DNA of 30,516 bases. Origin: Longimicrobiales bacterium (GTDB taxonomy: Bacteria > Gemmatimonadota > Gemmatimonadetes > Longimicrobiales > Gaopeijiaceae). Positions 2,934 through 3,002 of this stretch are shown piece by piece. The DNA lies in NCBI GenBank assembly GCA_965197725.1, contig CBDANQ010000027.1, positions 1 to 30,516 on the forward strand. The letters are read 5' to 3'. The notes under the pieces were generated by a model that saw only the letters and a list, made by a program, of their open reading frames with translations, was not told the DNA's origin and made no database searches. The first letter of the stretch is position 1; each line of letters opens with the position of its first letter. Position numbers and translations under genes: made by a program.

Positions 2934-3002
2934 ATCGTGATGAGTCCGAACAGTTGTTGGGGCCGAGGGAGCCCGGATCTGCAAGATAGGACGATGCACG
3001 AT
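2934..3002 (+). ncRNA. Predicted IS110 bridge RNA donor-binding loop
   Basis: Stems ATCGTG(2934-39)/CACGAT(2997-3002), GTCC(2944-47)/GGAC(2989-92) and GGGC/GCCC(2971-74) enclose an internal loop. Its strands ACAGTTGTT and TGCAAG match the element's own donor junction ACAGTTG-CT-TGTA. Confidence 0.75.

Follow-up and report, generated by a model that had tools for sequence, protein, structure and literature searches.

Does the short segment at positions 2934–3002 of this Longimicrobiales contig, which lies upstream of a gene for an IS110-family recombinase, encode a loop of a guide RNA that specifies the ends of its own mobile element, and could the element at this locus still use such an RNA? 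The window analyzed here is the whole stretch of 30,516 nt, contig C27 of a draft genome (G000; 3.0 Mb, 64.6% G+C, 61 contigs, 88.9% complete). Near its left end, two nested mobile elements occupy the interval between a CBS-domain gene, which ends at 1340, and an ABC-transporter gene, which begins at 4157. A preliminary description of the window had taken the segment for part of an RNA-guided recombinase system. We consider it very probable that 1360–3988 is a copy of a 1,161-bp IS110 element of the IS621 type, that 2934–3002 is the donor-binding loop (DBL) of its bridge RNA, and that this particular copy is defective.

Copies of the element define its ends

The recombinase gene is present in three copies in its own genome: in the window, at locus L002 (contig C52) and at locus L003 (contig C53). 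The intact copies L002 and L003 are the same 1,161-bp unit, which starts CTTGTATG and ends ACAGTTGCT and is set in unrelated flanks. Five further copies with different flanks are found in genome G300, which belongs to the same family but to another genus. All five end ACAGTTGCT; four start CTTGTATG, and the fifth (L073) starts with TT instead of CT. The four G300 copies that were compared with L002 differ from it at 5 of 1,161 positions. The sequence of the host genome also recurs in sponge and marine metagenome runs. From these we used assembled contigs only, a form of data that drops rare variants, in 4 of 24 runs; contigs break at both element ends in two DNA-type runs and one RNA-type run. 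Because the copies share their ends while their flanks are unrelated, and because metagenome contigs break at the same places, 1360 and 3988 are the true ends of the element. The preliminary description had proposed these ends, and homologous elements have them too.

In the window copy, element positions 1–71 correspond to 1360–1430 and positions 107–1161 to 2934–3988, with no difference from L002; element positions are converted to window coordinates by adding 1359 (up to position 71) or 2827 (from position 107). Both boundaries carry a CT core in the window copy, in L002 and L003, and in four of the five copies from G300, and the right-end core of the relatives is CT in 25 of 26 and CC in one. 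At L073, on contig C14 of G300, the left boundary is TT and the right CT, a pattern that fits a less constrained first core base, as described in PMC11208158. The CTTGT at the left end is invariant in 27 relatives. The boundary features are as follows.

1353–1359, plus strand: left target flank (LT), CCCAAGC; it diverges from the other copies upstream of 1360, and four of its seven positions can pair with the left target guide
1360–1366, plus strand: left end, core CT and right-donor half (RD) TGTAT; common start of the intact copies, pairing with the right donor guide at 2977–2985
3980–3988, plus strand: right end, left-donor half ACAGTTG and core CT; common end of all copies, where metagenome contigs also end
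3989–3993, plus strand: right target flank (RT), AACAA; all five bases can pair with UUGUU, the right target guide found in intact copies

The donor-binding loop matches both ends of the element

Folding of 2934–3002 gives a stem, a large internal loop and a second stem (−24.8 kcal/mol, z = −2.61), with 1 of 200 shuffled sequences as stable, which confirms the structure that had been proposed upstream of the recombinase. The letters and coordinates quoted in the preliminary description are also right: ACAGTTGTT at 2950–2958, ACAGTTGCT at 3980–3988, TGCAAG at 2980–2985 and CTTGTA at 1360–1365. The guides read from them change slightly in the register of IS621, which we adopted from PMC11208160 and PMC11208158. 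As a left guide, ACAGTTGTT holds for its first seven letters; the last two, UU, are not conserved in relatives and add nothing. TGCAAG had been named as the right guide, with one wobble pair. The wobble pairing stands, and the true guide is discontiguous, AU[CU]GCAAG at 2977–2985, in which GCAAG pairs with CTTGT, donor position 12 forming a G·T pair, and AU with donor positions 13–14.

2934–3002, plus strand: DBL module, element positions 107–175; indicated by its fold, a covariance model and covarying stems
2950–2957, plus strand: left donor guide (LDG), ACAGUUGU, element positions 123–130; its first seven letters equal 3980–3986
2977–2985, plus strand: right donor guide (RDG), AU[CU]GCAAG, element positions 150–158; discontiguous, with a 2-nt bulge

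Relatives of the element were collected from 401 genomes of the same phylum, 70 of which matched at E≤1e-40, a tally that includes the unpublished genomes G097, G157 and G057. Our alignment (A1) covers 27 left ends, all of them from published genomes, the loci L046, L066 and L069 of the three unpublished genomes being excluded everywhere. These 27 relatives have 55–66% protein identity, to which near-identical copies in one other genome are added. Five LDG variants occur among the 27 elements (ACAGTTG, ACAGGTG, ACGGATG, ACCGTTG and ACAACTG). In each of the 26 elements with a complete 180-nt right-end window, the element's own LDG 7-mer is present there exactly once and the other four variants are absent; the own 7-mer is followed by CT, or once by CC. 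Loop letters thus covary with element ends in relatives, as the preliminary description would have had it, and each variant matches only its own right end. On the other side of the donor, the left ends of L065 and L068 read CTTGTGT, and their RDGs are AC..ACAAG (Watson-Crick pairing) in L065 and AU..ACAAG (wobble pairing) in L068. The number of ACAGTTG motifs in the window is by itself unremarkable: three were counted where 1.47 would be expected, and 17 of 100 shuffled sequences contain at least as many.

The guide RNA has a conserved two-loop fold

The minimum-energy fold of the intact 200-nt left end contains three hairpins. The first is a 5′ stem-loop, in which the relatives align poorly and give no covariation support. 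The second, the target-binding loop (TBL), survives in the window by its 5′ half only, and the third is the DBL.

1362–1396, plus strand: 5′ stem-loop of the bridge RNA, element positions 3–37, from the minimum-energy fold of the intact left end
1399–1430, plus strand: surviving 5′ half of the TBL, identical to positions 40–71 of the intact copies; it comprises the outer stem strand (1399–1411), the left target guide GUCCCGC+CU (1412–1420), a linker and the first half of the inner hairpin

RNAalifold applied to A1 predicted four helices, an outer and an inner one for the first and for the second internal-loop hairpin. Over 23 stem pairs, 97.9% of alignment cells are paired, compared with 36–51% when the partner is slid by 1–3 columns, and 13 of the 23 pairs carry compensatory changes on both sides. 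The outer stem of the TBL, for instance, pairs alignment columns 62–72 with 111–120 and includes compensatory changes. None of 500 shuffled alignments matched the observed values for cells paired, pairs or cells changed on both sides, or covariation score, and 2 of 500 matched that for further pair types, although the structure was derived from the same alignment on which the pairs were counted, which favors it somewhat.

Since Rfam has no family for bridge RNA, we built two covariance models, one for the DBL and one for the TBL, from 25 relatives, with neither the own genome nor G300 among them. A covariance-model search had been suggested as a check on the preliminary description. The DBL model, which had not seen the element's own family, finds 2933–3007 at 48.5 bits (E=1.4e-9), far ahead of the next-best hit in the window (E=0.28), and matches the same place in L002 and L003. 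The TBL model matches L002, L003 and a fragment on contig C18 that is described below, each at 59.2 bits (E=2.8e-12); it finds no TBL in the window, where its best other hit (E=0.43) lies elsewhere. Two Rfam hits inside the recombinase open reading frame (ORF), ASpks (E=0.15) and MIR2629 (E=7.2), are at chance level and were rejected.

The target guides follow the insertion sites

The second loop of intact copies carries two guides that can be compared with the flanks of each insertion.

Element positions 53–61, plus strand: left target guide (LTG), GUCCCGC+CU, covarying with left flanks
Element positions 79–85, plus strand: right target guide (RTG), UUGUU+AG, present in intact copies and lost in the window copy
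Element positions 86–87, plus strand: putative target-loop handshake bases CG, present in intact copies and lost in the window copy
2986–2987, plus strand: putative donor-loop handshake bases AU, element positions 159–160; GU in L003 and G300

With the right flanks, the RTG pairs at 4.81 of 5 positions in cognate combinations and at 3.34 in non-cognate ones; for the LTG and the left flanks, the corresponding values are 4.16 and 3.16 of 7. In both comparisons, 0 of 5000 permutations were as high. In the element's own family, the RTG pairs 5 of 5 (G·U counted) at seven of eight right junctions, as against 2.2% of 335,725 genomic CT sites. The right flanks of this family vary between A and G opposite U and between C and T opposite G, which is the wobble range of RNA-DNA pairing. 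Nine left junctions of the same family pair with the LTG at 3–6 of 7 positions, with a mean of 4.3 and a background of about 2.7.

The handshake bases fit the IS621 scheme, in which the base after the RTG pairs with donor position 7 and the base after the RDG with target position 7, though they vary too little to bear this out. The C after the RTG faces donor G7, and both are invariant. The base after the RDG is G in most elements, where it faces target C or T, and A in G375, where it faces T. Position 159 (window 2986) is A in the window and L002 and G in L003, in G300 and in 24 of 25 relatives outside the own family; it is G in all contigs of the four sequencing runs examined, A being a minority variant. 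In every own-family target the core is preceded by a C, with which a G at this position, but not an A, would pair.

The covariation of the target loop with its flanks also bears on another explanation, namely that 2934–3002 is nothing but a 5′-leader that regulates the recombinase gene 25 nt downstream and resembles the element ends by accident. The hairpin does lie directly upstream of the putative ribosome-binding stretch and the ATG, and its stability is significant on its own (z = −2.61). A leader would leave unexplained both the five loop 7-mers that match their own right ends and the covariation of the equivalent upstream loop with insertion-site flanks, and we regard it as highly unlikely to be the whole function of the segment. 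A regulatory side-role of the hairpin is compatible with its being the DBL.

The recombinase is a homologue of the IS621 protein

3028–3990, plus strand: recombinase gene, 320 aa; Pfam DEDD_Tnp_IS110 and Transposase_20, NCBIfam NF033542
3018–3027, plus strand: purine-rich stretch GGAGAGAGGG before the ATG, a putative ribosome-binding site judged from its letters

The 320-aa ORF matches Pfam PF01548 at 89.2 bits and PF02371 at 69.5 bits, and the NCBIfam equivalog model NF033542 (IS110 family RNA-guided transposase) at 233.9 bits, with a cut-off of 140. It has the layout of IS621-type recombinases, a RuvC-like DEDD domain at the N terminus and a C-terminal Tnp domain carrying the catalytic serine. 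The solved structures closest to it in sequence are those of ISCro4 (PDB 9t56, E=1.7e-41) and IS621 (PDB 8wt6, E=8.1e-41), aligned over residues 6–310. D11, E53, D95 and D98, followed by S233-G234, align with D11, E60, D102 and D105 and with S241-G242 of IS621, residues reported as essential there. By these alignments the protein is a clear IS621 homologue in which the DEDD residues and the Ser-Gly pair are kept. This agrees with two proposals of the preliminary description, that the catalytic residues are intact and that the protein is a bridge recombinase orthologue with a variant donor; the donor differs from that of IS621 at left-donor positions 6–7, and the loop differs to match.

The end of the gene and the end of the element overlap. 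The stop codon straddles the boundary (3985–3990), its T being the last base of the element and its AA coming from the target; element targets begin with AA or GA, which yields TAA or TGA. The left-donor letters ACAGTTGC are at the same time the last codons of the recombinase gene. In a circular form of the element, the in-frame ORF would extend five codons into the left end, to a TAG.

Kinship with IS621 also enters into the question of whether the matches at 2950–2956 and 2977–2985 act as RNA at all. They might instead be subterminal repeats that work at the DNA level, for example as transposase-binding sites. Repeats of terminal sequence inside insertion sequences are common, no RNA was directly observed in the contigs, and Rfam holds no matching family. 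Against this, each of the two loop strands corresponds to a different strand of the joint, one being sense and the other antisense, and both sit in an internal loop held by stems with compensatory changes. The tolerated mismatches, at donor position 12 and in the target flanks, are of the G·U type, which makes sense only for RNA-DNA pairing, and the protein is close in structural family to IS621, whose RNA mechanism is solved. We find the repeat explanation scarcely credible.

A proposed mechanism and what weighs against it

Starting from the element ends, guide/DNA matches, covariations, catalytic residues and promoter hexamers observed here, we infer RNA expression, binding and catalysis by homology with IS621. 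In this scheme, the 200-nt left end would encode a bridge RNA composed of the 5′ stem-loop, then the TBL, then the DBL. Intact copies would leave as a circle in which right and left ends are joined at the shared CT, and this joint would create a promoter that drives the bridge RNA and probably also the recombinase. The DBL would pair with both strands of ACAGTTG-CT-TGTAT, ACAGUUG with the bottom strand on the left and AU..GCAAG with the top strand on the right, and the TBL would pair with genomic DNA similar to GTCCCGC-CT-AACAA. The DEDD/Ser recombinase would then act as a tetramer and exchange strands at CT. In the window copy, an IS1182-like element would have entered a CTAG of the TBL, with the loss of 35 nt that include the right target guide.

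3968–3973, plus strand: −35-like hexamer TTGAGT, 13 nt before the core
1364–1369, plus strand: −10-like hexamer TATGAC of the putative circle-junction promoter, 17 nt from TTGAGT across the joint of right end (RE) and left end (LE), judged by resemblance to the consensus

Of 26 elements, 19 have TTGA at this same distance of 13 nt from the core, in most cases extended to TTGAC[T/A/G]. A promoter at the RE-LE joint, with the −35 box in the right end, is described for IS621.

Several points count against this interpretation. The Rfam 15 scan of positions 1–6000 (E≤10) returned no bridge-RNA family. The LDG comparison is partly circular, since the right ends of single-copy relatives were found by means of the LDG 7-mer; it therefore leans on the cross-variant control and on the multi-copy sets, which give independent boundaries in the own genome, G300, G069 (variant ACAGGTG), G198, G165 and G059. 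The relatives are kin and share both partners of each pairing, so the permutation counts overstate their independence. Pairing of the LTG with own-family flanks, at 3–6 of 7, is only moderate. The permutation test for the RDG was not significant (343, 312 and 382 of 5000), because the RDG and the left end are almost invariant. No circle or tandem RE-LE joint was seen in the contigs of the four runs, though this says little. Finally, RNA-library contigs cover L002:1401–2213 in one run (X15) and scattered parts in another (X16), left end and ORF included; DNA carry-over is possible and 5′ ends are unreadable in such contigs, so they are no proof of transcription. One contig of depth 3.9 with an internal skip of 450 nt was set aside as the variant of another organism.

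A second insertion sequence has disabled the bridge-RNA gene

The sequence between the two parts of the window copy is itself a mobile element.

1431–2929, minus strand: IS1182/IS5-like element, 1,499 bp, with DUF772 and DDE_Tnp_1 domains and imperfect terminal inverted repeats
1427–1430, no strand: left copy of the CTAG duplication, also element positions 68–71
2930–2933, no strand: right copy of the CTAG duplication, also element positions 103–106
1419–2897, minus strand: transposase ORF of this insertion sequence, 492 aa, Pfam DUF772 and DDE_Tnp_1

The best NCBIfam model for the transposase is IS1182, at 186 bits and thus below the cut-off of 270. The insertion sequence (IS) is abundant in this genome, with 40 left and 40 right ends; its copies, at 97–100% identity, make up about 2% of the assembly. 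Among its full-length copies, CTAG stands on the left in 26 of 31 and on the right in 26 of 31, and the same 4-mer is found on both sides in 25 of 31. The 1,499-bp IS itself contains no CTAG. Its transposase ORF has no internal stop; it reads through the CTAG and ends four codons on, at a TAG (1419–1421) that belongs to the IS110 sequence. Because the stop falls in flanking DNA, the C-terminal tail of this transposase must differ between copies.

CTAG occurs three times in an intact left end, at positions 60, 68 and 103. In the window copy, 35 nt (element positions 72–106) are absent between the two CTAGs, and the lost segment is exactly the interval from the second to the third. It held the RTG UUGUUAG, the putative handshake bases CG, the 3′ strand of the TBL stem and the remaining half of the inner hairpin of the TBL. 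The guide at this locus is not merely interrupted: the donor loop remains, and the RTG and half of the target loop are deleted. In addition, 1.5 kb of foreign DNA now separates the putative junction promoter from the DBL, and with the inserted IS the element has grown from 1,161 bp to 2,625 bp. What the copy retains is its two ends, the DBL and an undamaged recombinase gene. From this arrangement we would expect that the window copy cannot make a complete, working bridge RNA by itself and could move only with a bridge RNA supplied in trans by the copies on C52 or C53.

A fourth left end in the genome has met with the same IS. On contig C18 (L022:2457–2562, minus strand), element positions 1–106 are followed by this IS and then by unrelated DNA, so that the fragment comprises the 5′ stem-loop and the whole target loop, and neither a donor loop nor a recombinase gene lies nearby. 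The IS has therefore entered the bridge-RNA gene at least twice, at two different CTAGs. The four left ends hold 12 of the 2,541 CTAGs in the genome; for 40 insertions, about 0.19 would be expected to fall there, as against at least two found (Poisson P ~0.02). This is suggestive only of an enrichment of IS1182-like insertions in bridge-RNA genes.

These repeated copies also open another account of the locus, in which the window arrangement is an assembly artefact or a recombinant of two IS110 copies, and 1360–1430 and 2934–3988 are two unrelated halves. Forty copies of a 1.5-kb IS at 97–100% identity could have joined such halves, C18 shows that half-elements exist, and no empty site was recovered in four genomes of the same genus, all of which speaks against our view that both halves stem from one insertion. 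In a search of the right flank (3989–4700) against 31 relatives, homology within the genus (four genomes) begins only at the ABC-transporter gene. For the left flank (900–1359), same-genus DNA offers a single counterpart, a match of 91 nt with 71% identity. In G364, a match of 126 nt was considered as an empty site and rejected, as its upstream sequence differs. On the other hand, both window flanks fit the guides (LT 4 of 7, RT 5 of 5), the orientation and order of the halves are those of a single element, and a single element suffices to explain the structure if an adjacent deletion took out the 35 nt between two CTAGs. We think the two-halves account unlikely, and the identity of 2934–3002 as the DBL is unaffected by it.

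Of the four bridge-RNA genes in the genome, the two hit by this IS are complementary: the C18 fragment has the target loop that the window copy lacks, and the window copy has the donor loop and the recombinase. Because the two loops of one IS621 synaptic complex apparently come from two RNA molecules, as its structure suggests (PMC11208158), and because two-part bridge RNAs work in cells (PMC13396178), the C18 and window halves could conceivably act together as a natural split bridge RNA, and target loops with a CTAG run may be preferred landing sites of the IS; we put this forward as a long shot. If true, the CT core, by forcing a CU-A-G run on the loop, would draw CTAG-specific insertion sequences to it, an antagonism between mobile elements.

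Comparison with known bridge recombinases

Our comparison with the RNA of IS621 from Escherichia coli rests on residue numbers and letters quoted in two papers (Durrant et al. 2024, PMC11208160; Hiraizumi et al. 2024, PMC11208158), and within those quotations the likeness is extensive. The recombinases are homologous over residues 6–310. In both elements the bridge RNA lies in the left end upstream of the gene, in the order 5′ stem-loop, TBL, DBL, and the guides stand at nearly the same nucleotide numbers, with the LDG at 123–130 in both (PMC11208158). The CT core is shared and the right-donor half CTTGTAT is identical. Both have a bulged RDG with a G·T at donor position 12 (PMC11208158); the putative handshake bases after the RTG and the RDG and the −35-like box in the right end would also correspond.

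The differences are of detail. The left-donor half is ACAGTTG here and ACAGTAT in IS621 (TG for AT at positions 6–7), with a matching LDG in our element. The IS621 donor ACAGTAT-CT-TGTAT, which the preliminary description had cited, is present in a published donor oligonucleotide (PMC13396178). As far as the quoted letters go, the RTG has 7 nt including the core here and 4 in IS621, and the LDG has U here, not C, where it faces the first base of the core. The present element is shorter, at 1,161 bp, with an ORF that ends in its last base; its host is a bacterium of 65% G+C, and its window copy has lost the RTG.

ISCro4 (PDB 9t56) is the best-scoring solved structure in a comparison that covers the protein only; it has been used as a bridge recombinase with a split bridge RNA (PMC13396178). 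The cargo-carrying IS110 elements described by Hu et al. (bioRxiv 10.64898/2026.08.14.744561) resemble the window copy in having foreign DNA between their ends. They differ in that the added DNA here is an IS that destroys the bridge-RNA gene, not adaptive cargo.

Spread of the element and surrounding sequence

Although G300 belongs to another genus, its copies differ by 5 of 1,161 nt, while the next relatives have 66% protein identity, which suggests recent horizontal spread of the element between G300 and the own genome. In the relatives from G198 and G165 (L081–L087), the right flanks have nearly the same 16 nt (aacgac..gcgcatca); these elements insert into a repeated genomic sequence, like other reported IS110 members.

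Elsewhere in the window, a stretch of about 55 nt within 4127–4187, just ahead of the ABC-transporter gene and extending over its start, is found again at 80–97% identity, many times in the four genomes of the same genus and at several places in the own genome, one of them window 16915–16944. It looks like a small dispersed repeat. On the minus strand at 168–973, the CBS-domain frame is overlapped at its annotated start by long ORFs (180 and 224 aa), the longer of which has no Pfam match at E≤1e-5; the real CBS gene probably starts near 900. Genes for AMP-binding, UbiA prenyltransferase, enoyl-CoA hydratase and TPP-enzyme domain proteins at 26431–30516 (minus strand) look like a menaquinone biosynthesis cluster. 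The remainder of the window contains ordinary housekeeping genes.

Implications

The bridge-RNA architecture was described in 2024 for thousands of elements. The element described here is an ordinary member of this known IS110/IS621 RNA-guided family, and knowledge of the mechanism is unchanged by it; its only unusual point is the natural knock-out of a target loop by another IS. For annotation, 1360–1430 (71 nt) and 2934–3988 (1,055 nt) should be treated as one split element without a functional bridge RNA. The element adds a compact orthologue (1,161 bp, 320 aa) from a high-G+C genome to the catalogue of bridge recombinases, although it may already be included in the supplements of PMC11208160. 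Its guide code is fully readable, with donor ACAGTTG-CT-TGTAT, a target of approximately GTCCCGC-CT-AACAA and a 7-nt RTG. Together with about 25 natural relatives in which guides and sites covary, it offers material for choosing orthologues in genome engineering and for studying the co-evolution of guides and sites.

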